DNA of 64,000 nt from Anaerolineales bacterium (GCA_029210945.1 JARGGH010000018.1:148-64147), one strand, 5' to 3'; shown: positions 23,323 to 41,639, counted from the first letter of the stretch. The notes: a model not told the origin generated them from the sequence alone. A program made the numbers and translations.

Positions 23323-23324
23323 GA

Positions 23325-23705
23325 TTAGCTCTTGCGCCGTCTCGGTCTGTTCGGCCGGCGTCTTGGTGGGGACGCATCCACTTCCGTCGGTTTAATCGGG
23401 AAGAGCAGCGCATAAATAAATGACAGCAAACCGTAGCTCAAAAGTAGGAACAGGAACGCGATGATCAGCCGCAGCAACAAACCGTCGCCCAGAAACGGTG
23501 CGAAGTCCGGGTTATAAGCCTCGTAAGGGAGGTTAATCCAGCCGTTCGTCGCGTTGGCGCGCACGAACCATCCCGCAAAGAAATAACCTCCCACAGAAAA
23601 ACCCGCGATAATCAGGCAGCCAACCCCGCGCCAGATCGGGTTGATCTGCCCCCTCATCTCCCGCTCTTTATCCAATTGCCGGTATCGAAAGGTGTCTCGT
23701 CCCAT
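23325..23705 (-). CDS. Small hypothetical membrane protein
   Basis: GGAGG RBS before MGRDTF; INPIWRGVGC, 2 TM, basic tail. Confidence 0.75.
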   Translation of the reverse strand: MGRDTFRYRQLDKEREMRGQINPIWRGVGCLIIAGFSVGGYFFAGWFVRANATNGWINLPYEAYNPDFAPFLGDGLLLRLIIAFLFLLLSYGLLSFIYALLFPIKPTEVDASPPRRRPNRPRRRKS

Positions 23706-23762
23706 GTTTACCTCCCGCTTGTAAATCGACCGTTCAGGCGGATCGACGTACACATCGTCAGC

Positions 23763-25190: not shown

Positions 25191-25211
25191 GAACGGCTCC
25201 CTTTGCCTCCT

Positions 25212-26015
25212 TTAATCGAGCTTCGGGTCGTGGCCCATGGGCTGACCCGTACCGCCCCGCTGATGCTGAATGATTTCGGCAAAAATACTCAAGGCGATCT
25301 CTTCGGGCGTCTCGGCGTTAATGTCCAGGCCCATCGGCGAGCTGACCTTTCGGAGATCCTCCTGCGGGACTCCTGCCTGCTGCAAGGCTTTCGCGGTGGT
25401 CTCCCACCTGCGCCGGGACCCGATGACACCGATGTAAGCTGCTGGTGATTCCAACAATTGTGGTAGAGCCTGCACATCGATTTCTACGCTGCGTGTCGTG
25501 AGCACGAGGAACGTGTTGGCGTGGATCTCGACATGCTTTGTGAGCGCATCCGGCTCACAGTGAACGAGCTCATCAGCCTCAGGGTTGGTACTCTCTGACG
25601 CGAACTCGACACGATCGTCGCAGACGACCACATGGTATCCGAGCCAGCGCCCGAGGTGCGCCAGGGCCTGACCCACATGCCCGGCCCCCAGGACGATCAA
25701 CTTCGGTGGGATCTGCACGGGTTCCACAAACACCTCCATCTCACCGCCGCACACCCCCACATCGCCCTCTGAAGGATCGCGGAACTCGTAGTTCACCAGC
25801 TCCGTCGCGCGGCTTTGAATGGCTTCAAGTGCGGTCTGGATCACGCGACTTTCCATCTCGCCGCCGCCGATCGTACCCTGCGTCGTTCCATCCGCAAAGA
25901 CGATCATCTTGCTGCCGGCGTGGCGCGGCACCGACCCCCGGGTGCGGATTACCGTCACCAGCGCCGCCGGCACACCACGTTCCTGTATGTCGGCCAGTTG
26001 ACGATACAAACCCAT
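25212..26015 (-). CDS. xdhC: XdhC/CoxI-family Moco insertion chaperone
   Basis: RGSVPR..GSKM, GTIGGG, CGG, GAGHVG, YIGVIGSRRR, AETPEEIALSI. Confidence 0.93.
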   Translation of the reverse strand: MGLYRQLADIQERGVPAALVTVIRTRGSVPRHAGSKMIVFADGTTQGTIGGGEMESRVIQTALEAIQSRATELVNYEFRDPSEGDVGVCGGEMEVFVEPVQIPPKLIVLGAGHVGQALAHLGRWLGYHVVVCDDRVEFASESTNPEADELVHCEPDALTKHVEIHANTFLVLTTRSVEIDVQALPQLLESPAAYIGVIGSRRRWETTAKALQQAGVPQEDLRKVSSPMGLDINAETPEEIALSIFAEIIQHQRGGTGQPMGHDPKLD

Positions 26016-27361
26016 CAGCGGTCCTCGAGCATCGCCAGGACGACCGGCAGCAGCTGCTTCTTTCTGGAAACCACCCCGCTCGCATCGAGCAAACCCTCAC
26101 CGAGACGCTTATAAGGCAGCTCTGACAAGACCGGCGGCGCCGAGTGCATCAGAATGCGGCTCGTCCCCTCAACGATGTCAGTGATCATCAGCATGGCGAA
26201 ATCCAAGCCGCGCTGTTCGATCAACGCCTTCAACGCCCCATCGAGCGGCGCCAAGTGCTCCTCAACCTCGACCAGATCGGTAACCTCCACCTGCGAGATC
26301 CCGAAGTGCATACCGGCCGCGTCGTAAATCTTCAAATCGCTCGTGATAACAGACATCGGATCGCGGGTCGACAGACCGGTACCAGCCTGGAGTAAACCCT
26401 TCCCGAAACTCTCGATCGTCTCGCCCTCAAGCGGTGACCCGCCGACGAACGCCCAGCGGGCAAGACGTTTGGCGGCGCGGTGGTCGCGGTCCGTCGTTGT
26501 CGGGGAGGTGAGCAGCAGCGTGTCGGAGAGGACACCTGCCAGCAGAAGCCCGGCCAGATCCGGTGGAGCTCCCATGCCGGCATCCTCGATCCGCTCGGAC
26601 ACAAGCGTGCTCGTGCTTCCGACCGGGTCAACCCGGAAACGGATCGGCAGGCGCGTGGGCGGGTTGCTCAAGCGGTGATGATCGAGCACCTCGAGCAGGT
26701 CCGCTTCATCCAGCGAGCGGATCGATTGCCCGACTTCATTATGATCGACCATAATCAGCTGCAGCCTTGGAGGGTTTAGCAGATCGCGCTGCCGGCAGAT
26801 CCCCTCATAGCGGCCATCCTCGCCCACAACCCAGAATTCGTTCCGTTCGCCGCGCAGCACGCGCGGGAGCGAGTCCCGGATGCGTGAACCCAGGCGGAAC
26901 TGGGGCACATTCTGGTCGGCTGCCTCGCCGCTTGGAAGGTCAAACAGCTGGGTCAGGTTCATATCTTCCAGCTCGGGGTTTACACCGACCAGATCGCTCA
27001 ACGACCGGAACAAGCTGAAGCCGGTGACCAACCCGAACGGTTTGCCGTCCGCCTCCACGACCGGGGCAACCGTGCCCGTGCGGTTGGCGATCGCCCACGC
27101 CTCCCGCAGCGGTCTGTCCGGCGTGACCGTGTCGAAACGCAGCGTCACCGACTCAAATCGTGGAGAGGCGTCGGTCAGCAGTTCCGGAGCAGTTAAACCG
27201 ACGCGGTCCAGCGCCCAGGCGGTCTGCGCGTTGACCGCCCCACCGCGCGCGGCGATGACTTCATCCTGCGATTTCTGCGCCCGGTACCACGCATACCCCA
27301 TCGCCGAGGCGATCGCGTCCGTATCCGGGTTGACATGTCCGATAACGTAAATGTCTGCCAT
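26015..27361 (-). CDS. ppaC: Family II (DHH) Mn-dependent inorganic pyrophosphatase with CBS-like insert
   Basis: GHVNPDTD, VDHNE, LDHH, LSDTL..SPTTT, VVSRKKQ. Confidence 0.88.
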   Translation of the reverse strand: MADIYVIGHVNPDTDAIASAMGYAWYRAQKSQDEVIAARGGAVNAQTAWALDRVGLTAPELLTDASPRFESVTLRFDTVTPDRPLREAWAIANRTGTVAPVVEADGKPFGLVTGFSLFRSLSDLVGVNPELEDMNLTQLFDLPSGEAADQNVPQFRLGSRIRDSLPRVLRGERNEFWVVGEDGRYEGICRQRDLLNPPRLQLIMVDHNEVGQSIRSLDEADLLEVLDHHRLSNPPTRLPIRFRVDPVGSTSTLVSERIEDAGMGAPPDLAGLLLAGVLSDTLLLTSPTTTDRDHRAAKRLARWAFVGGSPLEGETIESFGKGLLQAGTGLSTRDPMSVITSDLKIYDAAGMHFGISQVEVTDLVEVEEHLAPLDGALKALIEQRGLDFAMLMITDIVEGTSRILMHSAPPVLSELPYKRLGEGLLDASGVVSRKKQLLPVVLAMLEDR

Positions 27362-27404
27362 CAATACTCACTCTTCACTTGATCTCGGCACCTGGCGGAT
27401 TGCA

Positions 27405-30398
27405 TCAGCTCCGCAGCGATTTCCAGACCCGTTCCGGCGTCACCGGCGCGGCGAGCACATCCCCCCCGCAAGCATCCATGACGGCATTGGCGACGGCCGG
27501 AGCGACGCCATCGATGGGGATCTCCGCAACTGCCTTGACCCCGAAGGGATGCGAAGGCTCGATCGTCTCGACAAAGATCGTCTGCAGTTCAGGCATCTCA
27601 TGCGCTGCGAAGATATGGTAGTCCGTGAAGTCTACCTCTCTTGCCCGTCCTTGATCATCGTACAGCATCTCCTCGCAGACTGCATAACCCAGCGCCTGGG
27701 TCATGCCGCCCTCGACCTGGCCGGATGCGGTGAGCGGGTTCACGATGATGCCCGAATCCACCGCCATAACCAGCTTATCGACGACCACCTGCCCGGTCTC
27801 GATATCGACGGTCACTTCTGCAAACTGGGCCGCAAATGGCGGTGGGGCGACCGGCGACATGTACGAACCGACCGCCATGATCTGCTCCTGGTCCTCCTGG
27901 TGCAGCGAATGCAGCGCCACTTCGGCGAGCGTCACCGAACGGCCATCTGGCGACCAGGCTTGTTTATTCGCCAGCCGGATAGCTTCTGGTCGAACCGGGT
28001 CGCCCTCCTCGCCAAACATCTTGGCCGCCCGTGCGCGAATGCGCTCGGCGACCTGACGGGCCGCCCGGACCACCGCGGCTCCCGAAATATACGTCGTGCT
28101 GGAAGCATAGGCGCCTTTATCAAACGGTGTGAAATCTGTATCCGAGGAGTAGACGATGATGTCATCGATCGGCACGCCCAGCACCTCCGCAGCCTGCTGC
28201 GCGAGCACGGTGTCTGAACCCGTGCCGAGATCTGTCGCTCCGATCAGCAAATTAAACGAGCCGTCATCGTTGATCTTGATGCTCGCCCCGCCCATATCCA
28301 GATACGGGATGGCGGTGCCCTGCATGACCAGCGCTACCCCGATGCCCCTCCGCAGGTGCGGTTTGTCTTCCACTCGCTGCCAATCAGGTCGGTTGAACTT
28401 GCTGAACCAGTCGATCGCCAGCGAACCCTGCTTGGCGCAATCTTCAAGTCCGCAGGTGTTGATCGTCTCCGGCCGCGGTTCACGTCCCTCAGACCAGGCG
28501 GTGCTGAACGGATGGACCTCTCCGGCACGCAGCGCGTTCTTCAACCGGAATTCCAACGGGTCCAGTCCGAGTTCTCGGACGATGCGCTCCATGTGCCTTT
28601 CAACCGCCCAGAAACCCTGCGGCACCCCATAGCCGCGGTAAGCGCCGGAAGGCGGCGTGTTTGTGTAGACAATGTCGGCGTAGAAGCGGATGTTGGGCTC
28701 TTGCCGATATTCGCCATCACCGACGTAGAGAGCCATCGCTTTATGACCGGTGTTGCCCGTGACGGTCAGCGCGTGGCAGCCATAGGCGCCCGTGTCGCTC
28801 AACGCGTACATCTCGTTCGCCGTGATGGTTCCGTCGTTTTTAACGCCCGTCTTCATCCTGATGCGCATCGGGTGCCGCGAGCGTGATGCGAAAAACTCTT
28901 CGGCGCGCGTGTACTCGATGCGCACGGGCCGTCCGGTCGCGATCGTCAGGTGAGCGGCTACGTCTTCAACAAGCACTTCCTGCTTCCCGCCGAATCCACC
29001 CCCGATGCGGGGCTTTATCACGCGGATGCGCTTCGCCGGCAGCCCGAGGACTGGTGCCAGCTGGCGGCGAGCGTGGAATGGGACCTGGGTGCTCGTGCGG
29101 ATCACCAGACGGTCATCCTCATCCCAATAGGTAATGGCGATATGCGGCTCGATGTGTGCTTGCTGGACTTTAGGCACTTCATAGGTCGCTTCGAAAATGT
29201 GATCAGCTTCATCAAACCCGCGCTCGACCTCGCCAATATCGATCCGGATCTTGGCCGCCAGGTTTCGCCCGGGGTCGGAAAGGTCGAAATTCACATAATC
29301 TGGTTCATCATGGATTTGAGCTGCCCCTTCTTCCAGCGCATCCGCAGGATCCAGGATTGCGGGAAGCTGTTCGTATTCGACCTCGATCAGAGCCAGTGCC
29401 TGCTCGGCGATCGCTTCGTTTTCAGCGGCGACGAACGCCACCCGATCGCCCACGAAACGCACCTTGTTATCCAGCGAGAAGCTGTCGAGCGGTCCCGGGA
29501 TCGGGTGAGATTGACCCGCAGTGGAATAGGCCACCCGCGGGATATCCTTCCACGTCAGCACGGCGGCGACGCCCTCCAGGGCGCGCGCCTTTGAAGCGTC
29601 GATGTGCTTAATGCGGGCATGTGCAACCGGGCTGTGCAAGATTTTCGCGACCAGCATGCCGCGCAGCTCAACATCCGCCGTGAATGCGGGTTTTCCCTGG
29701 ACCAGCTTGACAGCGTCAACTTTCGGCTCAGGATGGCCAACGGTATGCAGCGGTTCTGGATGATGGGCGACCTGTATGCGGGGCATCACCGTCGTTTCCA
29801 ATGAGACCTGCGTTCCACCGGGATCCCACCCTGCACGGCTTTCCCGTTCAGGTGCCGGCGTGATCAAGTCTTTCGGGGCTAGAATCGGACCGTCAATCGG
29901 TTCGACCTGTTCGCCACGCAGGACTGCCGCGGCGCGCAGGATAGCCTGCACCGGCTTGATATAGCCGGTGCAGCGGCAGAGCACCCCCGACAGAGATTCA
30001 CGCACTTCCTCTTCCGAAGGTTCCGGGTTCGCAGCCAAAAGCGACCGCGCCGCGAGCACCATGGCGGGCGTGCAGAATCCGCACTGGATCGCCCCGGTCT
30101 CGACAAACGCTTGCTGGACTGCATCCAGGCCGGCGCCGCTGCGCCAACCCTGGTCAGGGTGCTCGCCAACCGATTCGATCGTCGTGATCGAATGGCCTTC
30201 AACCTGCGCGGCGAGCATCACGCAGCTGTTCACTGGCTGCCCATCAAACAGCACCGTACAGGCGCCGCACTCACCCGTTTCGCAGCCGTGTTTCACACCG
30301 AAGAGGCCAAACTCATCCCGCAGGGCGTCGAGCAGCAGCGTATCCCCGGCAACGTCGAGTTCAACCGGTTCACCATTCAATAGAAATTGGATCTGCAT
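27405..30398 (-). CDS. xdhD: XdhD-like Mo-hydroxylase ([2Fe-2S] + molybdopterin fusion)
   Basis: GCETGECGAC, QCGFCTP, CRCTGY, GGGFGGKQE, AYRGYG, FDKGAYASSTT; architecture like E. coli XdhD. Confidence 0.85.
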   Translation of the reverse strand: MQIQFLLNGEPVELDVAGDTLLLDALRDEFGLFGVKHGCETGECGACTVLFDGQPVNSCVMLAAQVEGHSITTIESVGEHPDQGWRSGAGLDAVQQAFVETGAIQCGFCTPAMVLAARSLLAANPEPSEEEVRESLSGVLCRCTGYIKPVQAILRAAAVLRGEQVEPIDGPILAPKDLITPAPERESRAGWDPGGTQVSLETTVMPRIQVAHHPEPLHTVGHPEPKVDAVKLVQGKPAFTADVELRGMLVAKILHSPVAHARIKHIDASKARALEGVAAVLTWKDIPRVAYSTAGQSHPIPGPLDSFSLDNKVRFVGDRVAFVAAENEAIAEQALALIEVEYEQLPAILDPADALEEGAAQIHDEPDYVNFDLSDPGRNLAAKIRIDIGEVERGFDEADHIFEATYEVPKVQQAHIEPHIAITYWDEDDRLVIRTSTQVPFHARRQLAPVLGLPAKRIRVIKPRIGGGFGGKQEVLVEDVAAHLTIATGRPVRIEYTRAEEFFASRSRHPMRIRMKTGVKNDGTITANEMYALSDTGAYGCHALTVTGNTGHKAMALYVGDGEYRQEPNIRFYADIVYTNTPPSGAYRGYGVPQGFWAVERHMERIVRELGLDPLEFRLKNALRAGEVHPFSTAWSEGREPRPETINTCGLEDCAKQGSLAIDWFSKFNRPDWQRVEDKPHLRRGIGVALVMQGTAIPYLDMGGASIKINDDGSFNLLIGATDLGTGSDTVLAQQAAEVLGVPIDDIIVYSSDTDFTPFDKGAYASSTTYISGAAVVRAARQVAERIRARAAKMFGEEGDPVRPEAIRLANKQAWSPDGRSVTLAEVALHSLHQEDQEQIMAVGSYMSPVAPPPFAAQFAEVTVDIETGQVVVDKLVMAVDSGIIVNPLTASGQVEGGMTQALGYAVCEEMLYDDQGRAREVDFTDYHIFAAHEMPELQTIFVETIEPSHPFGVKAVAEIPIDGVAPAVANAVMDACGGDVLAAPVTPERVWKSLRS

Positions 30399-31147
30399 CA
30401 GCTTTGCACCTCTTCCAGCACGCGTTCAACCAGGATCGAGACGACCTCGGAACGATATTCCGCGCTCGCAAATACATCACCGGCGTCTGAGTAGCGCCGT
30501 GCCGCCTGCTGCCTGGCCGCCTCAACCGCATCTCCCGCCACAGGATCAAGCAGCCGCGGTCGTTCACCATAGCCACCGATCGCGATGGAGTACTTCTTCC
30601 CGTCAGCCGGAGCTACCGCGGCAGCACTCACCAACGGCCGGTCGGCCGGTGAGCGCGCGACGTATTCATAATGCAGGGCTCCTGGCAAAGCGAATGCGAT
30701 GCGCTCGATGAGAAAGGGAGTCTCCCCCGTCATACGATTATCAAGGAGCTTGTCCAGGGGGACCTCAGAAGCCTCGCCGCTGATCGAAACGCTCGTCTGC
30801 AGAGCGAGCAGGACCAGCACTAGCGGCGAGCGGGCGTTGGCAGTCATAATCGTGCCACCCAGAGTGGCCATATTGCGCAAATTCAAGCTTGCCTCAAACC
30901 GGGCTGCCCGGCGCAGCTGTGCGGGCAGTTCGAAATCGGGATCCAGTAAACGCTGGATCCTGGTCGCGGCGCCGATCCTGACCGTCCCGGACTGGATCTC
31001 AATCTGGTCAAGGCCCAATCTGTCGAGATCAACGACCGCTTCGAGCGTGCGCCGCTCGGGAGCCAGCGCCGTGCCGCCTGCCAGCGGAACGCCCTCCGAG
31101 AGCAGCTCCAGCGCTTCCTCAATCGTTTCCGGTCGGTAATATTTCAT
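30398..31147 (-). CDS. YgfM-like FAD-binding subunit
   Basis: YYRPETIEEAL, PLAGGT, LRNMATLGG, SAEYR; translationally coupled to the xdhD-like gene. Confidence 0.85.
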   Translation of the reverse strand: MKYYRPETIEEALELLSEGVPLAGGTALAPERRTLEAVVDLDRLGLDQIEIQSGTVRIGAATRIQRLLDPDFELPAQLRRAARFEASLNLRNMATLGGTIMTANARSPLVLVLLALQTSVSISGEASEVPLDKLLDNRMTGETPFLIERIAFALPGALHYEYVARSPADRPLVSAAAVAPADGKKYSIAIGGYGERPRLLDPVAGDAVEAARQQAARRYSDAGDVFASAEYRSEVVSILVERVLEEVQS

Positions 31148-31671
31148 CTCCCACTTCCTTGTTCATCTTCGGCATCCGCATACACTCTCCACCCCAGCGC
31201 CTCCAGGACCTCCGTCTCCTCCGGGGCTTCAGACAGATCCGCCAGCACGGCTTCGGCTTCAGCAGCCAGGGTGCCGTCGTTAAGTCGGACCTCAGCGTGA
31301 GCGGTGACCAATCTGCCCCGGTCCTCCTCCACCCAGCCCTGCAAACGGATCGTTTCACCGGTCGGCACCGGACGTCGGTAGCGGATAGCCAGTTTGGCGG
31401 TCAGGCGGAAATGCGTGTGGTCATCGATCATCGCCGCCCTTCCAGCGACCTCATCCAGCATGGCCGCGACGATCCCGCCATGAACGATGCCAGGATAGCC
31501 CTGATAGGATTCGGGCAGGCAGGGTTCGGCAGCTACGCGGCCTTGCCCGTCCTCGAAGAATTCCAGACCCAGACCGCTCTTATTCTCAACACCGCAAACG
31601 AAACAGTGTCTGGAATTCGGCTGCTTGATGCGCGCCGGAGCGCCGGACTGCTCAGATCGCTTCTCCTTCAT
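31144..31671 (-). CDS. PaaI-family hotdog thioesterase
   Basis: CFVCGVEN..GL, YQGYPGIVHGGIVAAMLDE. Confidence 0.9.
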   Translation of the reverse strand: MKEKRSEQSGAPARIKQPNSRHCFVCGVENKSGLGLEFFEDGQGRVAAEPCLPESYQGYPGIVHGGIVAAMLDEVAGRAAMIDDHTHFRLTAKLAIRYRRPVPTGETIRLQGWVEEDRGRLVTAHAEVRLNDGTLAAEAEAVLADLSEAPEETEVLEALGWRVYADAEDEQGSGR

Positions 31672-31717
31672 GGGCTTATCTCCTTGAAGCTAGTTTGGCG
31701 CCCAATTTTCCTGCTGG

Positions 31718-32722
31718 TCAGTTATGCGGGCTGAAGGTGTCTACAAGCAGTTTTACATCCCCGCCGACCGGGTAGAGGATCGGGGAGGTCGCGCCGTTAT
31801 CCAGATACTCCTGAACCTTCGCCCGCGCCTGTTCCGGCGTTCCCGAGGCGGTGATCCTGGTGACCAATTCGTCGGGCACAAGGTGCTTTGCACGCTGAAT
31901 CTGCTCGTGCGTGGCCGGCCAGCCAAGAATCGACTGGATTTCATCGACCACACTCTGGTCCACCTCGCTGGCCTTGGCGATGTGCGGCTGCTGGGCCAGA
32001 TACTGTGTGAGCAGTTCGCGGCTGGTGTCGAGCGCCTTAGCCTCATCTTCATCCACCGAACAAACCACAAGCTGAGGCCGGTCGAGATCATCGATCCGGC
32101 GCCCGGCTTTCTTTGCGCCCGCTTCCAGCCGGTCCATCGCCTGCAGGTTGTAGCTCGGCGGGACGCAGTAGTTGAGCACAGCTCCATCTGCGATTTCGCC
32201 GGTCAACTCCATCATCTTGGGGCCTGTCGCCCCGATATAGATGGGGACATTGCGTGGCTCCTTGCGACCGTGCACGACGTCTAATTCGATGCCTTCAACA
32301 TCGTGGAATTCGCCGTGAAAGGTGACCTGCTCCATGTTCAGCAGCCGGCGCAGGACCTCAACGGTCTCGCGCATGGCGGTCAGCGGTTTGCGGCGGTCGA
32401 TGCCGACGTTCTTAGCCAACGGATCCCACCACGCCCCGATGCCGCAGATAATCCGGTCGGGAGCCAGGTCGTCCAGCGTGAGGAACGTTGCCGCTAACAA
32501 TCCAATATTGCGCGTCCAGTTGTTGATCACGCCCGACCCCACCTTGATCCGTTCGGTGACTGCGGCGTAGGCTGCCATCGGTACAATTGCATCGCGGACG
32601 AGCCTGGATTCCGCCTGCCACACCGCTTCAAAGCCTTTCTCCTCAGCATAGCGAGCGTAATCCAGCTCATCTCTCAGATCATGGGCATCCTGCAGATAAA
32701 GCGCTACTCGTTCGAGACTCAT
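31718..32722 (-). CDS. LLM-class (luciferase-like), probably F420-dependent, Mer-like reductase
   Basis: [40 protein letters not shown]; overlaps cofC by 4 nt. Confidence 0.9.
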
Positions 32723-33348
32723 CCTTCACCCTCCTGCACTATTAGGTTTGATTTCAATCCTGCTTGCAGCACTTCGAGATCCTCCGGCAGGTCAAGATCC
32801 AGACCCAACGAAGAAATTTCGCAGATCTCAACCCGGGCGCCGGCTTCTTTCGCACGATGAACGTGGTGCTCGAAGCTGTCCGGGCCAAAATCGTAATCAA
32901 TCAGACCCGGCGGCGAAGCCAGCAGGGCATTCGTGCCGCTCCGGCGTCGATCCGGGGCGATGACCACCACGGGCGGGTCCTTCGCCTTAGCGACCAACAT
33001 CTGAATATCTTCAACCGTGATCAGGGGCAAGTCCGCCGGCAGGACGAGCACACCGGATACGCCGTAGCCCTGGGCGACGATCGTTGCGCGCACCAGGGCG
33101 CGGTTAAGTTTCGGAGAGCCGCGTTCAGCGACGGTGCGGGCACCATGCTGACGGGCGATGGACAAAGCTTGAGTGTCCCTGCTCACCACTAATGTATGCT
33201 CAATTTCCTGCACACCATTGAGCGTATTCAGCGTATGGACCAACATCTTGCGACTCAATTCGGCACGTTCCTCATCCGATAGTACGCCTGACAGCCGTGA
33301 CTTCGACCGTCGCAACGGTTTGATGGGGACGATCGCCCAGTAAGTCAT
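32719..33348 (-). CDS. cofC: 2-phospho-L-lactate/PEP guanylyltransferase
   Basis: AIVPIK....[31 protein letters not shown]. Confidence 0.93.
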
Positions 33349-34292
33349 GTGGAGCGCATCCTTTCCTGGATCTGCTGCGCGAACTCGAGAATGGTGTCGG
33401 CCAAGTTTCTTCGGTCATGGTAATCGTTCATCACGGTCTGTGTTACGCAAGTCTGAAGGCCGAGAACCTGCACTTGTGATTCTAATTCAAGATCGGCATG
33501 ATCGAGCACAAATCCGTCGAGCAGTGATCGGTAGTGTTCGGCCACGGTGAGGGCCGAGGCTTCAAACCCCAGCTGCTGATACATCATCGCCGCCGGTCCT
33601 TTGAGCGCGCGGCCGCCAATGATAGGCGATACCCCGACCACAGGCTTCTGGCCAACTGCGCTGCGAACACCCTCGATGGCAAGAATCGGATCGAGGCTCA
33701 CCCAGGGGTTCGACGGGCAAAGCACAACCAGATCTGCTTCACCTATGGCCTCGAGGACGCCGGCGGCCGGTTTCGCAGAGTCAAGCCCTTCGAAACGAAA
33801 GCCGCGCACCTCGGGCTCACAACGCAGGGCCACGAAATAGGTCTGGAAGGCGAGCTCGCCCCCCTCTGTCTGGACCTTCGTCGCGACGCGCTCGTCGGAC
33901 ATCGGCAGGATCGTTGATCGCACCCCCAGCGTAGAACAGAAATCACCGGTGATCGCTGTGAGCGTTTCGCCTTGTCCAAGCCTGCGGGTCCGTTCCAGAT
34001 GCAGCGCCAGGTCTTTGTCTCCAAGCCGGAACCACGTTGGGCCGCCAAGCAACCTGAGCGTGTCGAGACAAATCCAGCTCTCATCCGCGCGCCCCCAGCC
34101 CTTCTCTGGATCTGCCAGGCCCGCCAGCGTATACATAACCGTGTCGAGGTCAGGTGAAATCCTGAGTCCGAGATATTCGAAGTCATCGCCGGTGTTGACG
34201 ATGACGGTTAAATCCCCCGCCGGCAGCACCTGGTCCAAGCCATGTGCCAGTTTTGCCCCTCCGACTCCACCTGCCAGCGCGGCGACTTTCAT
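33345..34292 (-). CDS. cofD: 2-phospho-L-lactate transferase
   Basis: LAGGVGGAK, VNTGDD, ISPDLDTVMY, WFRLGDKD, PSNPWVS, ALKGPA. Confidence 0.95.
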   Translation of the reverse strand: MKVAALAGGVGGAKLAHGLDQVLPAGDLTVIVNTGDDFEYLGLRISPDLDTVMYTLAGLADPEKGWGRADESWICLDTLRLLGGPTWFRLGDKDLALHLERTRRLGQGETLTAITGDFCSTLGVRSTILPMSDERVATKVQTEGGELAFQTYFVALRCEPEVRGFRFEGLDSAKPAAGVLEAIGEADLVVLCPSNPWVSLDPILAIEGVRSAVGQKPVVGVSPIIGGRALKGPAAMMYQQLGFEASALTVAEHYRSLLDGFVLDHADLELESQVQVLGLQTCVTQTVMNDYHDRRNLADTILEFAQQIQERMRST

Positions 34293-34903
34293 TTCCAGAG
34301 CGTAACCTCCCCCAGCCGCTTGCGCCCGCGTGCCTTTCCCGGATCGGCCGGATACCCCAGCAGGATCAAGCCCTGCGGCGACCAGCTCTGCGGAAGCCCG
34401 AGCTCATCTCTGACAAGGTTGGGTACGAACAACGGGGCACAGATCCAGCAGCCGCCGAGACCTTCCGCATGCGCAGCGAGCAAGATGTTCTGACCTGCCA
34501 TCGCCACACCCTGGACACCCATCAGAAACTCGGCCTGACGGCGCGCTGGATCCGGGTATTCATCCATTGTCTCCTGATCCATGCATACGACGACGACGAC
34601 CGGCGCCCCGCTGATGCGGGCGTACGAGCGCTCGACGTCTCGCTCGATCGCAGCCGGTTCCAGACCATCCCGCTCGAGGTCTTCACGCAGCCGTTCGCCC
34701 ATCCTGCGGGCCAGGCGCTCTCTTGCCTCCAGTGCCCGCAACACCACGAAGCGCCACGGCTGGCGATTGTGTGCAGAAGGCGCGTGAATGCCGGCCGCGA
34801 GGATCCGTTTCAGCACGCCCTCAACGACCGGCGTACCCTTGAAACGCCGCACGGAATGGCGGCCCTCAATAAGCTTGTAAAACGAGTCTGCGGGGTCGCT
34901 CAT
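34289..34903 (-). CDS. Nitroreductase-family protein (FbiB C-terminal-like, putative dehydro-F420 reductase)
   Basis: RHSVRRF, APSAHNRQPWRF, QNILLAAHAEGLGGCW; located between cofE and cofD. Confidence 0.85.
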   Translation of the reverse strand: MSDPADSFYKLIEGRHSVRRFKGTPVVEGVLKRILAAGIHAPSAHNRQPWRFVVLRALEARERLARRMGERLREDLERDGLEPAAIERDVERSYARISGAPVVVVVCMDQETMDEYPDPARRQAEFLMGVQGVAMAGQNILLAAHAEGLGGCWICAPLFVPNLVRDELGLPQSWSPQGLILLGYPADPGKARGRKRLGEVTLWK

Positions 34904-35298
34904 CCGCGTACGCTGACCGAGTTCGCTTCAATCACAAACATCACCCGTCCCTCGCGCTGATATCCCCGGAATTCGCGTTCTCCTGTGTACTTATCTGCAA
35001 GTTTGTGGATGTGCTCCAGGGCGCCATCTTCGATGCGATCCACAACACGACCTCGAACCTGCAGATATCGATAGGGATTCTTGGGATCAATAACTAGGAA
35101 TGCCACCCGGGGACGGCTGCTCATGTTCTGTTCCTTAACCCGCCCTTTGGCGGTGTTCACCCGAATCCTACCATCGATGAAATCAAACCAAACCGGTGTA
35201 ACCTGCGGCGACCCGTCGGGCATTATTGTTGCCAGAGATGCTAAGACCTCAGCCTCATCCGTCAACAGGTCACGATGCGTATAGGGAATCTCAACCAT
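34900..35298 (-). CDS. PPOX-class F420-dependent oxidoreductase
   Basis: LATIMPDGSPQVTPVWF, GRVKEQN, NPYRYLQVRG, LADKY. Confidence 0.9.
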   Translation of the reverse strand: MVEIPYTHRDLLTDEAEVLASLATIMPDGSPQVTPVWFDFIDGRIRVNTAKGRVKEQNMSSRPRVAFLVIDPKNPYRYLQVRGRVVDRIEDGALEHIHKLADKYTGEREFRGYQREGRVMFVIEANSVSVRG

Positions 35299-35351
35299 AA
35301 ATCACCGCCGACCTTACTCGTTCGAAGGGTTATTGGAAGAGCTTGAGCAAT

Positions 35352-36128
35352 TTATCGGAATAGATCATCCTCCTTCGAACGGACAATTTCTCTTACCGAT
35401 CCCTCCCGCAGCGGGTAGGGAAGGCCCCGCAGGTGTATCACCGGTCGGCCCTCATTCGCCTGCCCCATTAGGACGGATGCGCCCGATGCAATCTCGTCCG
35501 CCAAGCCCACTTCCGTGCTCTTTAATATGACGTCGAACAGATCCGGCTCGCCGCGCAGGTCAAGCAACACGGGGAATCCGGCCGCCCCGATGCACACCCC
35601 GGCAGTCCCCATGCGCCAGGCGCGTCCGTGTGAGTCGATGATCAACACGGCTACCTGCTTGCCAGTCTCCCGAACCAGCCCATCTCGCAGCAGGTGCGCG
35701 GAGCGATCTGGATCCTCGGGCAGCAGCAGGACCCAGTCGTCATCCTCTCCATACTCTCCTCGCACGTTAGAGCGGTCCACACCGGCATTGGCGCACACAA
35801 ATCCCAGCCGATGCTCAACGACGATCAAGCCTTCACGTAGCCGCAGGATCGAGCTGCTTTCGCCCAAAATAATTTCGAGAATACGGGGGTCTTTGCCAAT
35901 CTTCTCTGCCAGCTCAAGTGCTTCGGCGGAGGGTTCAATCTCCGGGAGATAAACTAAGCGACCTTCGGACTTCGAGACGATTTTCTGAGCGAGGATGAAG
36001 ACATCGCCCTCCTCGGCGGTAAGCTCTGCTCGATCCATTCCATCAACGATCAGCTGCACCAAATCGTCTCCGGGGTGAATAAGAGGAAGTTCTGGCAGAG
36101 CCGTGAAGATGAGCTGCTTGGCTTGCAT
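35352..36128 (-). CDS. cofE: Coenzyme F420-0:L-glutamate ligase
   Basis: GDDL, QKIVSKSEG, ANAGVDRSN, LLPEDPD, DSHGRAWR, DLFR. Confidence 0.95.
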   Translation of the reverse strand: MQAKQLIFTALPELPLIHPGDDLVQLIVDGMDRAELTAEEGDVFILAQKIVSKSEGRLVYLPEIEPSAEALELAEKIGKDPRILEIILGESSSILRLREGLIVVEHRLGFVCANAGVDRSNVRGEYGEDDDWVLLLPEDPDRSAHLLRDGLVRETGKQVAVLIIDSHGRAWRMGTAGVCIGAAGFPVLLDLRGEPDLFDVILKSTEVGLADEIASGASVLMGQANEGRPVIHLRGLPYPLREGSVREIVRSKEDDLFR

Positions 36129-36130
36129 CC

Positions 36131-36793
36131 CTATCTCACGCCAGTGACGCGGATGCTGGCTTTCTTCGTATCGTAATGCTTGTTCATGGCGATCAGGATC
36201 GCTGTGAGTCCTTCGACCACGATCGCGTTGTCCAGGCTGCCAGCGTAATATCCGTTTAACCCCGCTCCCTCAACGAGTTTGACAACCTCGAATGCAGCAT
36301 CGATATCATCGGAGCAAATCAGCACATCAAGATCGAGCGGCTCGTCGACCGCTTCCTTCAAGCGGTGTGCGGGAACCGTCTGAAATGCGGCCACGACGCG
36401 CGCCTCAGGCCCGATTTCATCCTGCGCATAACGGGGTGCCGAGGGCGGTTCCGGTGGTTTTGGATCGCGGAAATCCACCCGCGCCGTCGTGTCGACGACG
36501 ATTTTGCCGTGCAGCCCCTCTTTAAGCGATCTCACGGTGGCAGCATGCGCGTCCTGCTTAACGGTCAGGACAACGATGTCAGCCCGCTCAATCGCTTCGC
36601 TGTTCTCCAGGCCGAGGATGCTTTCGATGCCAAGCTGCTCATTCAGTTCATCAGCCACGGCCTGCGCTTTCTCAGCCTGGCGAGAGCCGATGATGACCCG
36701 GTAGCCAGCCTGTGCCCAGCGCATGGCCAGACCTGGCCCGAGTTTTCCTGTCCCTCCAACCAGCGCAAGCGTAAGGATCAATTTATCTGACAT
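36131..36793 (-). CDS. npdG: NADPH-dependent F420 reductase
   Basis: GGTGKLGPGLAMRW, IGSRQAEKA, VVAAFQTV, NAIVVEGLT. Confidence 0.9.
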   Translation of the reverse strand: MSDKLILTLALVGGTGKLGPGLAMRWAQAGYRVIIGSRQAEKAQAVADELNEQLGIESILGLENSEAIERADIVVLTVKQDAHAATVRSLKEGLHGKIVVDTTARVDFRDPKPPEPPSAPRYAQDEIGPEARVVAAFQTVPAHRLKEAVDEPLDLDVLICSDDIDAAFEVVKLVEGAGLNGYYAGSLDNAIVVEGLTAILIAMNKHYDTKKASIRVTGVR

Positions 36794-36817
36794 ATCCTCT
36801 CCCGATCGATTCTTAGG

Positions 36818-38173
36818 TTACTCGTCCTCAGGCACATACGTTTGGTAGCGCTCCCACACCTGTGGTACGAGAGCGCGTGCCCGGGCGGTGATCTCTTCCT
36901 CATCCAGCGTCAACAACTGTCCATCCTTCATCAGGATTTCTCCGGCGACGATCGTCGTGGTGATCATCGACTCGTGGAACCCGAAGAGAATATGCCAGGG
37001 CAGATTCCCAATCGTAAGCGGGGTTGTCGGGTGATAATCCACGAGAATGAGGTCTGCAGCCGCGCCGGTCTCGATCTTCCCCGGAGGTTGATCCGGGAAG
37101 AACCCGCTCGCCAGCGCAGCGTTGTTTTCAACGGCCAATTTAATGATCGTGTCCCCTGGCATGCGCCGGGGATCGCGATGCCAGACCTTATGGAGCAGGT
37201 AGGCCGTTTTCCACTCCGCCCACATCGCATTGGAGAATCCGTCATTGCCGAGCCCGACCCGCACACCGGCGCGCAGCATCGATTCGACGGCAGCCGCTCC
37301 AACCCCGTTATTCATGTTCGAGCGCGGTTGATGCGTGACCCAGGTCTGCGTGTCAGCGAGGATCTGCACCTCCCGGGCATCGACGTGAATCGCATGAGCG
37401 ACAATCGTGTGCTCCCCCAGGATCTCGTGCTCGAGCAAACGGTCCACGACCCGTTTCCCGGACCTGGCCAGGCTGTCATATTCATCCGCTTCGTGTTCTG
37501 CCACGTGGATGTGAAACCCGGCCTCCGGGGGGGCAGCTTCCCGGCAGGCCTGCAGTGTCTCGTCAGAGAGCGTCAGGCTGGCATGCAGGCCGAACGTACC
37601 GCGCACCCGTCCGCCGGCGATACCACCATCGGCTGCCATCTGCATGAAGCGCACATTTTCCCGGATACCCGCTGCCGCCTTCTGCTCGCCGTCACGGTCG
37701 GTGACCTCGTAGCAGAGCACTCCACGCAGACCGGATCGATCCAGCGTCTCGGCGATCACGTCGAGCGAGCCGTCAATCGCGTTAGGTGAAGCGTGGTGGT
37801 CGATGAGGGTTGTCGTTCCGTGCTTGATCGCATCAACCAAACTCACAAGCGCCGAGTAGCGGACACTCTCTTCATCCAGCGATTTGTCAAGCGGCCACCA
37901 CAGTTTCTCGAGGATCTCCGGGAAGTCTTTCGGCGCCCGACCCGGGATCGCCATCCCGCGTGCAAACGCGCCGTAGAAGTGAGTGTGCGCACAAATATTG
38001 CCCGGCATTAAGAACTGTCCCCCGGCGTCCAACTGTCCTTCGCCGGGATATTTTTCTGCAAGGGCCTGGCTGGTCCCAACCTCCGCGATCTTCCCATCCC
38101 GAATGAGGACGCCATGCTCCTCGAGGATCTGCTCGCCCGTCCAGGTTACCAGTTTCGCATTGGTGATCAACAT
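36818..38173 (-). CDS. ssnA: SsnA-family aminohydrolase
   Basis: MPGNICAHTHFY, LEKLWWPLD, IDHHASP, FGLHAS, HIHVAE, HQPRSNMNNGVG. Confidence 0.92.
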   Translation of the reverse strand: MLITNAKLVTWTGEQILEEHGVLIRDGKIAEVGTSQALAEKYPGEGQLDAGGQFLMPGNICAHTHFYGAFARGMAIPGRAPKDFPEILEKLWWPLDKSLDEESVRYSALVSLVDAIKHGTTTLIDHHASPNAIDGSLDVIAETLDRSGLRGVLCYEVTDRDGEQKAAAGIRENVRFMQMAADGGIAGGRVRGTFGLHASLTLSDETLQACREAAPPEAGFHIHVAEHEADEYDSLARSGKRVVDRLLEHEILGEHTIVAHAIHVDAREVQILADTQTWVTHQPRSNMNNGVGAAAVESMLRAGVRVGLGNDGFSNAMWAEWKTAYLLHKVWHRDPRRMPGDTIIKLAVENNAALASGFFPDQPPGKIETGAAADLILVDYHPTTPLTIGNLPWHILFGFHESMITTTIVAGEILMKDGQLLTLDEEEITARARALVPQVWERYQTYVPEDE

Positions 38174-38187
38174 CGGCCGTCTTCCTT

Positions 38188-38820
38188 TCAGTCAAAAACC
38201 GCAGGCGCGTCCTGTTGGCGGAAAGCCCGGAACACATCCTCAAGATGCTGCGGGGTCGTCCGGAAACCTGAGAGCGGCTCGGGCAGATCATCCTGAGAGA
38301 AGAACCCGCCTTCCGTGGTTTCATGACTTGTCCGGATCTCCCCGGAGTGTAAGTCACAGAGGAAGATCAATTTATAAGCGTGAAATAAGTCCAGCGAGCC
38401 CGGGATGCGGTTTGCATCATAGACACCAACCAGGCGCACCGCATTAACTTTCAGCCCGGCCTCCTCCAGCACCTCGCGTTCGATCGCCAGGGCCGGCGAT
38501 TCGCCGACATCCGCCCACCCACCGGGCAGCGTCCAGCCGCCGTCCATGACCTCACGCACCATCAGCAGCTTACCCTGCTTGAACACCGCCCCGCGCACAT
38601 CCACTTTGGGAGTGACATAGCCCGGCTGCTGTTCGAAGGCCAATTGCACCTGCTCAAAGGTCAGGCTGCTGTGTGCGGCGACCATCTCGGCGGCGATCTC
38701 CAGCAGTCTCTCCGCACGTTCTTCCTCGAACGGGTTGCGCGCGTAGTGCCGGCCGGTCTTGGCCAGCGCCTGGATTTCACGCGCCCAGTGAAGCCACTGA
38801 TCCCCTCCTTTACGCTCCAT
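38188..38820 (-). CDS. Nudix hydrolase with Nudix_N domain
   Basis: WLHWAREIQALA, GYVTPKVDVRG, GGWADVGES....EREVLEEAG; likely start MERKGG at 38820. Confidence 0.9.
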   Translation of the reverse strand: MERKGGDQWLHWAREIQALAKTGRHYARNPFEEERAERLLEIAAEMVAAHSSLTFEQVQLAFEQQPGYVTPKVDVRGAVFKQGKLLMVREVMDGGWTLPGGWADVGESPALAIEREVLEEAGLKVNAVRLVGVYDANRIPGSLDLFHAYKLIFLCDLHSGEIRTSHETTEGGFFSQDDLPEPLSGFRTTPQHLEDVFRAFRQQDAPAVFD

Positions 38821-41593
38821 CCGGGGCCTTCCGGGCGATTTCCAACGCCAGCCAATCCTGATCAACCGGGATCTTGCGCAAACGCACGCCGCAGGCATTG
38901 TAGATCGCGTTCGTGATCGCTGGGATGGTCGGCATGGATGAGATCTCGCCAACACCCTTAGCGCCGTATGGCCCTTCGGAGGTAGGATGCTCGACCACGA
39001 TCGATTCGATCTCGGGCGTCTGTGCGATGGAGGGCATGCGGTAGCGGGCCAACTGATCCGTCCACACCTCGCCACCCTCCAGGATGAACTCCTCGGTCAG
39101 CGCGTGCCCGACTCCCATGATCACGCCACCCTCCACCTGGCCGAGCAGACCAAGCGGGTTGATCGCCCGGCCGACATCATTGGCGGCGATAACCCGCAGC
39201 ACACGCACCTCACCGGTCAGCAAATCGACTTCGACCTCCGCTGCCTGGGCCGCGAACGAAAACGCAAAGTGCTTATCACCTTCGGTGCCCAGCGGATACG
39301 TCTCCGGTGCCCAGTATTCAAACGAAACGAGCGGCTTGCGACCTTCTTCATTCATGATCGAAGCGACCCGGTCCATCATGATCTGCTGGCCGTTGACCTG
39401 TGCCAGCCCTTCGACGTAGCGGATCGACCCGGGCGGGACTTCGAATTTCTCGGCGAGCGTGGCCGAGATCGAATCTCGCAGCGCACTGGCTGCGTGGCGC
39501 ACGGCGTTGCCGCTGATGTACGTCTGGCGCGAACCCGTCGTCGGCCCTCCGTCAGGCGTAAGGTCTGTGTCGGAAAGCAGCACCCGAACGCTTTCGAGCG
39601 GCAGGCCCATTTCTTCGGCGGCAATCAACTGCAGAACCGTCACCAGACCCTGTCCAATTTCGGCCGAGGACGTGCGCGCCTCGACGGTTCCGTCCGGGAG
39701 CAATTCGACCTCAGCCGTCGCCCGGTCCGGGGCGCCCTCACCCAGGCCGGTGTTCTTGAACGCTACTGCAAACCCCCACGCCCGGCTTAAATGAGGCTCC
39801 CCCACGACTTGACGCGCCGTGAATGGATCCTTGCCGGCAACCTCTTCTAAACGCGCCTGGACCCGTTCGATACAGTCTATCAACCCGACACTCTCATCCA
39901 GGATCTGACCGGTGTTGGCAATCGAACCTTTCCGGAGCGCGTTCTTGCGCCGCAGAGTAACCCGCTCGATGTCCAGCATTTCAGCGAGCTCATCCATCGC
40001 GGTCTCAATCGCAAAGATCGACTGCAGGGCGCCAAACCCCCGGAACGCGCCCGCCGGCGGGTTGTTGGTGTACATCGCATAACAATCCGATTTCACATGT
40101 GGGATTACATAGGGACCTGCTGAATGTGTGGTAGCGCGCCCCATAACCTTGTCGCCCAGCGAGGCGTAGGCGCCGGTATCGCCATAGAGTTCCGTTTGCG
40201 CCGCTACGAGCGTGCCGTCCCGCTTAGCGCCCAACCGCACCCGGATCTGGGTGGCATGGCGCTTGGGGTGGACGATCAGGCTCTCATGCCGGTCAAAGAG
40301 GATCTTGACCGGGCGGCCAGTGTGGTAGGCAGCCAGCGCGGCATGGATCTGACCGGCAATATCTTCCTTGCCGCCGAAGCCACCCCCGATCAATGTCCCG
40401 ATCACCCGGACACGGCTCTCGTCGACTCCCAACGCCGCAGCGATTTGCTCACGATCTTCATACGGGATCTGTGAGCCGACATACACCTCCACACGATCAT
40501 CGTCAGTGATGCGTGCGATGCTGCACTCCGGCTCCATGAATACATGATCCATCGCCGGGGTGAAATAGACCCGGTCCAGGATCACATCCGCCTGTTCAAA
40601 ACCCAAATCTACGTCACCTTTACGAACCTTGATGTGTTTCAGGAGATTGCCGTCCTGATGCACTCTGGGGGCGTCCGACTGGTAAGCTTCGACCGGATCG
40701 GTAACGACCGGGAGTGCTTCGATTTCAACCCCGATCCTCCCGAGCGCTTGCTCCGCAATCCCGCGCGTGTCTGCAACGACGATGGCGATCGCGTCGCCGA
40801 CATAACGCACCTTCTCTCCGATCCCGACCAGGGCGGGCCAGTCGTGATAGACGACGCCATGGTTGACCCGACCGGGAACATCCGGCGCGGTGAGGATCGT
40901 GTGCACCCCTTCAACTGCACGCGCCTGCTCGAGCTCGATCGCACGCACGATTCCATGCGGCACACCGGCCCGCAACACCGCGCCATGCAGCATACCCGGA
41001 AACTCGTAATCGTCGCTGTACATGGCCGTGCCATCAACTTTGGCGATTGCGTCGGGTCTCCAGGCATAGCGGCCGACGACGCGCTCATCACCGCTGACCT
41101 GCATGACCGGCTCACTCACCGGTGAACCCGATCGCAAGCTCTGGGCGGCAGCCTGGACCGCCGTAATGATGCGCGGGTAGGCGCCGCACCGGCAGAGGGT
41201 ATCCCGCAGCGCGTAACGGATGTCTTCTTCCGAAGGATCCTGGTTGTCGGTCAGCAGCGCGTAGCCGGTCATGATCTGACCGGGGATGCAGAAACCGCAC
41301 TGCACGGCACCGTGTTTCACGAATGCATCCTGGAGCGGATGAAGCTCCCCGTTCGATCGAAGCCCCTCGATCGTGAGCAGCGTTTTTCCGTCAGTCTTCA
41401 TGGCGGGCATTGTGCAGGAGAGGACCGGCTGGTCCTCCAGCAGCACGGTGCAGGCGCCGCATTCAGCTTCCTCGCACGCGATTTTCGTACCGGTCAGTCC
41501 AAGACGATAGCGGAGCACGTCCGAAAGCATCTCGCCCGGTGCGACCTCAACCACATGCTCTTCACCGTTCACCATTAATTTCAATCGATCCAC
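38810..41593 (-). CDS. Xanthine dehydrogenase-family [2Fe-2S]+molybdopterin subunit
   Basis: CEEAECGAC, QCGFCIPG, CRCGAY, GGGFGGKE, AFRGFG, GAKGVGE; GTG start at 41593 after AAGGAG. Confidence 0.93.
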   Translation of the reverse strand: MDRLKLMVNGEEHVVEVAPGEMLSDVLRYRLGLTGTKIACEEAECGACTVLLEDQPVLSCTMPAMKTDGKTLLTIEGLRSNGELHPLQDAFVKHGAVQCGFCIPGQIMTGYALLTDNQDPSEEDIRYALRDTLCRCGAYPRIITAVQAAAQSLRSGSPVSEPVMQVSGDERVVGRYAWRPDAIAKVDGTAMYSDDYEFPGMLHGAVLRAGVPHGIVRAIELEQARAVEGVHTILTAPDVPGRVNHGVVYHDWPALVGIGEKVRYVGDAIAIVVADTRGIAEQALGRIGVEIEALPVVTDPVEAYQSDAPRVHQDGNLLKHIKVRKGDVDLGFEQADVILDRVYFTPAMDHVFMEPECSIARITDDDRVEVYVGSQIPYEDREQIAAALGVDESRVRVIGTLIGGGFGGKEDIAGQIHAALAAYHTGRPVKILFDRHESLIVHPKRHATQIRVRLGAKRDGTLVAAQTELYGDTGAYASLGDKVMGRATTHSAGPYVIPHVKSDCYAMYTNNPPAGAFRGFGALQSIFAIETAMDELAEMLDIERVTLRRKNALRKGSIANTGQILDESVGLIDCIERVQARLEEVAGKDPFTARQVVGEPHLSRAWGFAVAFKNTGLGEGAPDRATAEVELLPDGTVEARTSSAEIGQGLVTVLQLIAAEEMGLPLESVRVLLSDTDLTPDGGPTTGSRQTYISGNAVRHAASALRDSISATLAEKFEVPPGSIRYVEGLAQVNGQQIMMDRVASIMNEEGRKPLVSFEYWAPETYPLGTEGDKHFAFSFAAQAAEVEVDLLTGEVRVLRVIAANDVGRAINPLGLLGQVEGGVIMGVGHALTEEFILEGGEVWTDQLARYRMPSIAQTPEIESIVVEHPTSEGPYGAKGVGEISSMPTIPAITNAIYNACGVRLRKIPVDQDWLALEIARKAPDGA

Positions 41594-41639
41594 CTGAGAA
41601 ACTCCTTCATTTACCTGCATACCAACACATGTTGACTTC

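Follow-up and report, generated by a model that had tools for sequence, protein, structure and literature searches.

A Mer-like, putatively F420-dependent enzyme as candidate replacement for the reductase YgfK in a purine cluster of Anaerolineales

We present the analysis of a stretch of 64,000 nucleotides (in the following, the window), which corresponds to C9:148-64147, i.e. to positions 148-64147 on contig C9 of the Anaerolineales (Chloroflexota) metagenome-assembled genome (MAG) G000; this genome comprises 2.69 Mb on 98 contigs and is 79% complete. Between positions 27405 and 38173, the window contains a block of eleven genes, for which the best explanation is that it encodes the reductive, upper part of anaerobic urate breakdown (the 2,8-dioxopurine or isoxanthine pathway). 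With moderate confidence, we propose that one of the encoded proteins, a luciferase-like monooxygenase (LLM) family member of the F420 type resembling Mer, is the 2,8-dioxopurine reductase of this pathway, that it replaces YgfK, and that it is fed by the neighbouring NpdG. What the sequences show is which genes are present, how they are arranged and distributed among genomes, and to which fold and family the LLM belongs; its substrate, the direction of its reaction and the salvage of FO we infer.

In the pathway of E. coli and Clostridium, XdhD-YgfM (DOPDH) reduces urate to 2,8-dioxopurine, YgfK (DOPOR) then reduces the ring of 2,8-dioxopurine at the expense of NAD(P)H, and ring opening is catalyzed by SsnA and HyuA, as described in the available text of Li et al. 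2025 (PMC12507026) and of Liu et al. 2025 (bioRxiv 10.1101/2025.04.24.650524). According to the former, the product of YgfK is detectable only with SsnA present. The initial annotation of the window had assumed that no F420-linked purine route was described. This assumption had to be given up: the same inference is already printed for Chloroflexota in the available text of Li et al. 2025 (Life Metab, PMC12507026; Fig. 3c and Discussion), where the SsnA neighbourhoods contain a putative F420-dependent LLM (PF00296 within 15 open reading frames (ORFs) of SsnA) instead of YgfK or UacX. The window represents one case of this variant. The available text names F420 four times and makes no mention of cofC/D/E, npdG, the missing FO synthase, or YgfK-bearing Anaerolineales. 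New here are the embedding of the cof and npdG genes in the cluster, the pairing of SsnA and LLM, the swap between YgfK and LLM, and the lack of an FO synthase. A literature search retrieved no later test of an F420 enzyme with SsnA or uric acid in Chloroflexota beyond Li et al., and nothing relevant on FO salvage or F420 in Anaerolineae; in the 2021 F420 review of Grinter and Greening, the strings 'purine', 'Anaerolin' and 'scaveng' do not occur.

The block consists of the following genes, listed in the order of transcription. Bit scores are given together with the curated cut-offs of the NCBIfam/TIGRFAM models, where these apply; Pfam domains were used in addition, and E. coli proteins were compared with the genome by means of tblastn at E 1e-6.

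36818-38173, minus strand: SsnA, cyclic amidohydrolase predicted to open the reduced 2,8-dioxopurine ring (NF005540, 503.6 bits, cut-off 444)
36131-36793, minus strand: NpdG/Fno, NADPH-dependent F420 reductase, predicted to regenerate F420H2 (TIGR01915, 172.8 bits, cut-off 149.8; PF03807)
35352-36128, minus strand: CofE, F420-0:gamma-glutamyl ligase (TIGR01916, 258.9 bits, cut-off 180.65)
34900-35298, minus strand: PPOX-class (FDOR-B type) F420-dependent oxidoreductase (TIGR03618, 98.3 bits, cut-off 79.05)
34289-34903, minus strand: stand-alone nitroreductase resembling the C-terminal domain of FbiB (TIGR03553, 159.2 bits, under the cut-off of 249.55)
33345-34292, minus strand: CofD, 2-phospho-L-lactate transferase (TIGR01819, 308.9 bits, cut-off 257.45)
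32719-33348, minus strand: CofC, guanylyltransferase of F420 tail synthesis (TIGR03552, 166.9 bits, cut-off 105)
31718-32722, minus strand: Mer-like F420-class LLM, the proposed F420H2:2,8-dioxopurine reductase (PF00296, 240 bits)
31144-31671, minus strand: hotdog-fold (PaaI-like) thioesterase (PF03061)
30398-31147, minus strand: YgfM-like FAD-binding subunit of a molybdenum (Mo) enzyme (PF00941, PF03450)
27405-30398, minus strand: XdhD-like fused 2Fe-2S/molybdopterin subunit of 997 aa, candidate urate-to-2,8-dioxopurine reductase (TIGR03313, 675 bits, under the cut-off of 1101.9)

The gene order ssnA-npdG-cofE-PPOX-nitroreductase-cofD-cofC-LLM-hotdog-ygfM-xdhD, as read in the initial annotation, was recovered with all eleven ORFs in place. 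Many of the junctions had been described there as short overlaps, and the ORF coordinates bear this out for six out of ten (1-4 nt): the overlap is 4 nt for PPOX/nitroreductase, nitroreductase/cofD, cofD/cofC, cofC/LLM and hotdog/ygfM, and 1 nt for ygfM/xdhD, while the four other junctions have gaps of 24, 2, 53 and 46 nt. A scan of positions 27000-39500 signaled two promoter-like and eight terminator-like sites; as shuffled sequences contain on average 3.3 and 8.9 of these, the scan is uninformative on operon structure. Searching the whole window with Rfam gave 0 matches. A query for sequencing runs covering 30398-38173 listed none, RNA included.

The protein on which the argument is centred belongs to the F420 branch of its superfamily. 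The top 17 NCBIfam matches of the LLM are all F420-class families (up to 179 bits, none above its cut-off), whereas FMN-class LLM families score at most 43 bits. Both equivalog models of Mer, the F420-dependent methylene-tetrahydromethanopterin reductase, remain below their cut-offs (NF002619, 179 versus 276 bits; TIGR03555, 166.7 versus 348.7 bits). Among proteins of known structure, Mer is the closest relative by sequence (E 6e-38), followed by FGD and Adf. An AlphaFold (AF2) model, which was based on 73 sequences, reached a pLDDT of 95.9. When this model was submitted to Foldseek, the best eight matches were Mer structures with TM-scores of 0.85-0.89 and 24-28% identity; other F420 LLMs came next, and FMN monooxygenases were ranked lower. 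The closest solved structures are those of Mer with the pdb codes 1Z69 and 8QPL (TM-score 0.88-0.89). From sequence and model, the LLM is thus predicted to be a Mer-like F420 hydride transferase that is not a Mer equivalog. The proposed reaction resembles that of Mer, which transfers a hydride from F420H2 to an N-attached carbon in a bicyclic N-heterocycle; unlike Mer, the LLM has its genomic context in purine catabolism and not in C1 metabolism.

By sequence, the LLM falls into a narrow clade. In the best 80 public loci (570 of the 600 candidate stretches encode an LLM relative), the relatives are 79-93% identical to it, and all of these loci stem from Chloroflexota MAGs, mostly of Anaerolineales. 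One MAG that has the cluster bears the label Anaerolinea thermophila (L022). For the analysis of phyletic patterns, we used an order-wide sample of 151 evenly drawn Anaerolineales genomes, all of which except G000 are at least 90% complete, and a phylum-wide sample of 301 genomes. An ortholog with 68-93% identity exists in 115 of the 151 genomes; in the phylum-wide sample there are 45 genomes with an ortholog, some of them from other classes (64-75% identity). A search of 1.84 billion cluster representatives gave only 389 matches at E <= 1e-30, and the best full-length ones are 50-51% identical.

The adjacent steps of the pathway can be assigned by comparison with E. coli. The best matches of E. 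coli SsnA, YgfM, XdhD, HyuA, YgeW and YqeA in G000 all lie within the window (30-51% identity); that of YgfK does not. SsnA of the window is 32.5% identical to its E. coli counterpart and YgfM 30.5%, each being the top match in the genome. For E. coli XdhD, the best match is the protein encoded at 27405-30398 (36.7% identity over 1025 aa, 573 bits), and the other three Mo enzymes score only 267-290 bits. The column of Glu606 does not help to discriminate between these enzymes, because it is occupied by Glu in all four aligned sequences, i.e. in E. coli XdhD and in the three Mo subunits of the window.

In agreement with the initial annotation, no YgfK-like gene was detected in the window or on contig C9. 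Extending the search to the whole genome, as had been suggested there, gave no TIGR03315 match above the cut-off in G000; weak matches are located on contigs C55, C88, C11 and C2, and none on C9. The best YgfK-like match of the genome, on C55, is nearer to E. coli YgfT (41.7% identity) than to YgfK (32.3%). PF01180, the domain of UacX/PydA-type enzymes, had no match in G000, which is 79% complete.

The neighbourhood of the LLM is conserved. Upstream genes were counted in 55 loci with at least 7 kb of upstream flank and downstream genes in 59 loci with at least 5 kb of downstream flank; note that these related loci were picked by LLM similarity, which favours the LLM in comparisons of conservation. 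SsnA, NpdG, CofE and CofC are each encoded on the same strand upstream of the LLM in 53 of 55 loci, CofD in 45, the nitroreductase in 25 and the PPOX enzyme in 20. This finding confirms the supposition that cofC/D/E and npdG are carried along with the LLM. Downstream, XdhD was found in 38 of 59 loci, YgfM in 36 and the hotdog protein in 29. SsnA and LLM also co-occur on the level of genomes: SsnA is above its cut-off in 117 of 151 genomes and the LLM is present in 115, and 105 of these 115 have both (110, if one includes SsnA genes cut by contig ends). Five LLM-positive genomes are without SsnA, and 24 of the 151 genomes have neither gene.

SsnA-family genes above the cut-off, 57-64% identical to that of the window, were also observed in loci L090 (G119), L092 (G020) and L091 (G047), where no purine genes are nearby. 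Membership in the SsnA family alone is consequently no marker of a urate cluster.

The block is not always in one piece. In genome G076, contig C5 carries the order Nudix-NpdG-CofE-PPOX-CofD-CofC-hotdog-YgfM-XdhD-DHH, from which both SsnA and LLM are missing; on contig C7 of the same genome, the two genes form a directly adjacent pair, and their products are 43% (SsnA) and 79% (LLM) identical to those of the window. Direct adjacency of SsnA and LLM was also seen in G056, G141 and G117 and, judged by coordinates, in G093, G123, G066, G136, G150, G128 and G086. In such cases of a divided block, the LLM goes along with SsnA and not with the cof genes.

A second line of evidence comes from genomes that possess YgfK, which is above its cut-off in nine out of 151. 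An anti-correlation of LLM and ygfK had been anticipated and holds in part: four of the nine YgfK-positive genomes lack the LLM, whereas the other five, all of genus g30, have both. CofD is missing from all four YgfK-positive, LLM-negative genomes, and CofE and NpdG are missing from G109, G119 and G103. In G109, joining two contig ends gives the order SeXDH-Nudix-?-CofC-YgfK-SsnA-hotdog-DHH (SeXDH, selenium-dependent xanthine dehydrogenase), in which YgfK spans the join and occupies the usual position of the LLM. Neither LLM nor CofD, CofE or NpdG was found in this genome.

Two further LLM arrangements were observed. Genome G123, which belongs to the same genus as the window, has a duplicated LLM, and a separate SsnA accompanies either copy: on contig C188, an 85%-identical LLM is part of a cof-type arrangement, and on C115, a 73%-identical LLM directly follows a second SsnA. 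At locus L098 (G140:C6:93000-112000), a 49%-identical paralog directly follows a UbiD-family decarboxylase; nearby are a pair of amidohydrolases, one SsnA-like (33%) and one HyuA-like (42%), and 2-oxoacid dehydrogenase genes. Judged by match coordinates, similar pairs exist in about 10 other genomes. This neighbourhood may represent a second F420-linked heterocycle pathway.

Based on these assignments, the following mechanism can be proposed. By orthology to E. coli, XdhD-YgfM would remove the 6-oxo group of urate, which yields 2,8-dioxopurine. The NAD(P)H-dependent flavo-iron-sulfur (FeS) enzyme YgfK would then be substituted by a relay of two enzymes, in which NpdG moves a hydride from NADPH to F420 and the Mer-like LLM moves it from F420H2 to 2,8-dioxopurine; on chemical grounds, C6 of the N1=C6 bond is the probable acceptor. 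SsnA would hydrolyse the labile product to ureidomethyl-hydantoin and thus pull the unfavourable reduction forward, and HyuA, the YgeW-like carbamoyltransferase and carbamate kinase would act downstream. The mass balance of 152 + 2H + H2O = 172 agrees with the transition at m/z 173 reported by Li et al. and fits one two-electron reduction. That the YgfK product was found only upon coupling with SsnA (Li et al.) is consistent with the tight linkage of LLM and SsnA.

Comparing the block with known systems illustrates what is shared and what differs. In the E. coli cluster, ygfK-ssnA-ygfM-xdhD is accompanied by ygeW/X/Y, hyuA and yqeA; in both cases, a reductase gene is linked to ssnA. In contrast to E. 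coli, the window has the Mer-like F420 LLM, NpdG and cofC/D/E in the place of YgfK, and it contains additional hotdog, DHH and Nudix genes as well as two further Mo hydroxylases. The variant of C. difficile uses UacX (PydA-like, PF01180) instead of YgfK, according to the available text of Li et al. 2025 (PMC12507026), and is a precedent for non-orthologous 2,8-dioxopurine reductases that utilize different reductants. The enzyme of the window differs from UacX in being an LLM TIM barrel with F420 as predicted cofactor, and not an FMN/FeS protein.

The F420 tail would be built by CofC, CofD, CofE and the FbiB-C-like nitroreductase, and the head group would be taken up. The nitroreductase, which aligns with positions 260-445 of the fused FbiB model NF009810, we take to be a candidate dehydro-F420-0 reductase of the revised F420 pathway. 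The npdG gene is single-copy in G000. The initial annotation had credited the LLM with its own set of cofactor genes, which is correct for tail synthesis (CofC, CofD, CofE) and recycling (NpdG), all above their cut-offs, and does not extend to the FO synthase: cofG and cofH were found neither in the cluster nor in the genome (TIGR03550 and TIGR03551, no match in G000). Consequently, the cluster would be able to build only the tail of F420 and not its deazaflavin head group. The same pattern is seen throughout the order, as cofH is above its cut-off in five of 151 genomes and CofD in 129, and 110 LLM-positive genomes are without cofH. The sensitivity of the search is indicated by the five strong cofH matches of 506-520 bits within the order. 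The contrast between cofH and CofD suggests that the order as a whole depends on a deazaflavin head group from outside, and the simplest reading of the rarity of cofH in these sequences is that the head group is probably salvaged by uptake of FO. More tentatively, and as a possibility to which we give somewhat less than even credence, most Anaerolineales may be unable to make the head group, may assemble F420 from FO, or from a later precursor, which neighbours (e.g. methanogens) release, and may spend the cofactor mainly on a Mer-derived enzyme dearomatising 2,8-dioxopurine.

A number of observations weigh against the LLM as the replacement for YgfK. In genera g30 and g61, YgfK is encoded away from purine genes (none within about 8 kb of it in G140 and G119), so that the swap argument draws mainly on one genome, G109; moreover, the five YgfK-positive genomes of g30 carry the LLM as well. 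SsnA is above its cut-off without an LLM in 12 genomes, and contig ends explain two of these (G080 and G146). In family f5 and genus g61, SsnA has SecDF and housekeeping genes as neighbours, and no reductase was found nearby; when the surroundings of SsnA in G119, G020 and G047 were examined for a reductase, only SecDF and housekeeping genes turned up. G133 has the order SsnA-CofC-YgfM-XdhD, and neither LLM nor YgfK was found there. As to G000 itself, even pyrD, which belongs to PF01180, is unseen, and with a completeness of 79% the absence of YgfK and UacX is unproven. F420 is not private to the purine pathway, since G000 encodes two more F420-class LLMs and CofD is present in 25 LLM-negative genomes. 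The supply of the cofactor poses a difficulty, too: cofH is above its cut-off in only five of 151 genomes, as stated above, and eight LLM-positive genomes (G012, G017, G023, G050, G061, G071, G092 and G107) have no CofD equivalog. Among them is the complete genome G012, in which SsnA-NpdG-CofE lie next to the LLM; a PF01933 search in G012, G017, G023, G071 and G107 retrieved only proteins of 439-482 aa, which in our reading are putatively YvcK-like. Finally, the standard potential of F420 is just slightly below that of NADPH, and no large thermodynamic gain is evident.

Several of these points would suit the alternative that cof-npdG-LLM is a general F420 supply module, which came to lie in a purine cluster by chance. 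The LLM would then act on another substrate (a different intermediate of the purine pathway, such as xanthine, urate or a ureido compound, or an unrelated metabolite), or in the oxidative direction, thereby making F420H2, and the real reductase would be encoded at another place or in the 21% of the genome that is missing. The wide distribution of CofD beyond the LLM, the two other F420-class LLMs, the coexistence of YgfK and LLM in g30, the 12 genomes with SsnA and no LLM, and the different context of the paralog beside the UbiD decarboxylase all speak for it. However, upon splitting of the block the LLM stays directly at SsnA and leaves the cof genes, its position is taken by YgfK in G109, the identity of 68-93% across the order suggests one conserved substrate, and F420H2 supply is already covered by NpdG. 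We regard this alternative as rather unlikely. The initial annotation had left open whether the LLM, the PPOX enzyme, or both replace YgfK; comparative genomics favours the LLM together with NpdG. That the PPOX-class enzyme reduces the purine ring and the LLM is an accessory is very improbable: it does exceed the TIGR03618 cut-off for F420-dependent PPOX enzymes, it is located in the operon, and enzymes of the same fold reduce C=C bonds of heterocycles (Grinter and Greening 2021, as listed in a table of that review), but it occurs in just the 20 of 55 loci mentioned above, its median identity is 51% compared to 82% for the LLM (a comparison in which the choice of loci favours the latter), and it remains with the cof genes on contig C5 of G076, from which the SsnA-LLM pair has moved away. 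Slightly less credible still is the idea that the F420 genes are non-functional relics, as no head group can be made, and that the pathway runs on another reductant. In its favour are the lack of cofG and cofH in G000, the scarcity of cofH in the order, and the eight CofD-less genomes; on the other hand, the block consists throughout of intact genes in close succession, the LLM ranks with the best-conserved genes of the cluster, internal stops affect only five LLM matches in four genomes among the matches listed in the 151-genome search, and an identity of 68-93% across an order is incompatible with decay.

The location of the block inside a large purine cluster, which had been noted before, is substantiated by the surrounding genes: the cluster spans from about 17.2 kb to 64 kb of the window. 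The following features belong to it.

17188-27364, minus strand: third Mo hydroxylase with maturation genes (YqeC-MocA fusion, PucD-like Mo subunit, DUF6909 protein, FAD and FeS subunit, XdhC, DHH-family protein)
38810-42530, minus strand: second Mo hydroxylase, consisting of an FeS and Mo subunit resembling Se-dependent XDH (TIGR03311, 775 bits, under 830) and an XdhB FAD subunit (NF043083, 191 bits)
42666-44087, minus strand: HyuA-type D-hydantoinase/dihydropyrimidinase, predicted to catalyze the second ring opening (TIGR02033, 527.1 bits, cut-off 393.25; 39% identical to E. coli HyuA)
58321-59268, minus strand: YqeA-like carbamate kinase (PF00696; 50.6% identical to E. coli YqeA)
59293-60270, minus strand: YgeW-like carbamoyltransferase (best match of E. 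coli YgeW, 34%; NF005538, 194 bits, under 453)

An adenine deaminase and a GntR regulator are also part of the cluster, and a GT2 glycosyltransferase, a threonine-synthase-like gene and pyrB are embedded in it as unrelated genes. The latter, at 60463-61416, was considered as a second YgeW-like gene and rejected, because it is pyrB (TIGR00670, 240.5 bits, cut-off 236.95). Two ORFs of the plus strand (46333-47598 and 47674-48297) were likewise dismissed; they have no family matches and are shadows of the minus-strand genes for the GT2 glycosyltransferase (46222-47187) and the threonine-synthase-like protein (47188-48453). E. coli YgeX and YgeY had no tblastn match in G000 at E 1e-6, which is a further difference from the E. 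coli cluster; given this result, non-orthologous enzymes may be at work at the end of the pathway as well.

Some additional observations concern the neighbours. At 17188-19336 (minus strand), the fused YqeC-MocA protein comprises 481 aa, and an adjoining stretch can be aligned with E. coli YqeB over 259 aa at an identity of 47%; both are markers for the maturation of selenium-dependent Mo hydroxylases. In the third hydroxylase, the genes of the FAD/FeS and the Mo subunit enclose those (21616-23753, minus strand) for a protein of 568 aa with DUF6909 (753 bits) and for one of 142 aa with three hydrophobic segments; both of these recur in related loci. The DHH-family (Mn-pyrophosphatase-like) protein at 26015-27364 (minus strand) and the hotdog thioesterase at 31144-31671 are conserved neighbours of XdhD and SsnA; G109 has retained the two in its YgfK-type locus, and the E. 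coli cluster has a counterpart of neither. Upstream of hyuA (44133-46199, minus strand), there are genes for a pyridoxal-phosphate (PLP) enzyme of 485 aa (weakly PALP/CysK-like) and for a protein of 166 aa that belongs to no known family; the set of three that they form with hyuA is found again in G080 and, in part, in L012. Positions 48458-58191 (minus strand) encode two complete ABC transporters of the PnrA/Bmp type; of their substrate-binding proteins, the first (52031-53236) matches Bmp weakly. These are presumably importers of nucleosides or purines, and a role in the uptake of flavin or FO is speculation only.

If the LLM is the reductase, anaerobic urate breakdown would have a third, unrelated solution to its dearomatising step, which relies on a cofactor not previously tied to purine catabolism, as judged by the wording of the 2021 review, and primary purine catabolism would have its first F420 enzyme. 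The proposal lends itself to direct testing, since assays for 2,8-dioxopurine are established and E. coli strains that produce F420 are available. For the engineering of urate-degrading strains, a reductase that is small and free of FeS could be useful, its application being restricted to hosts that make F420. In the Anaerolineales, an order of high abundance in digesters and sediments, F420 would gain a core catabolic role that is linked to an external supply of the head group; purine fermentation in this lineage would then depend on cross-fed deazaflavin.

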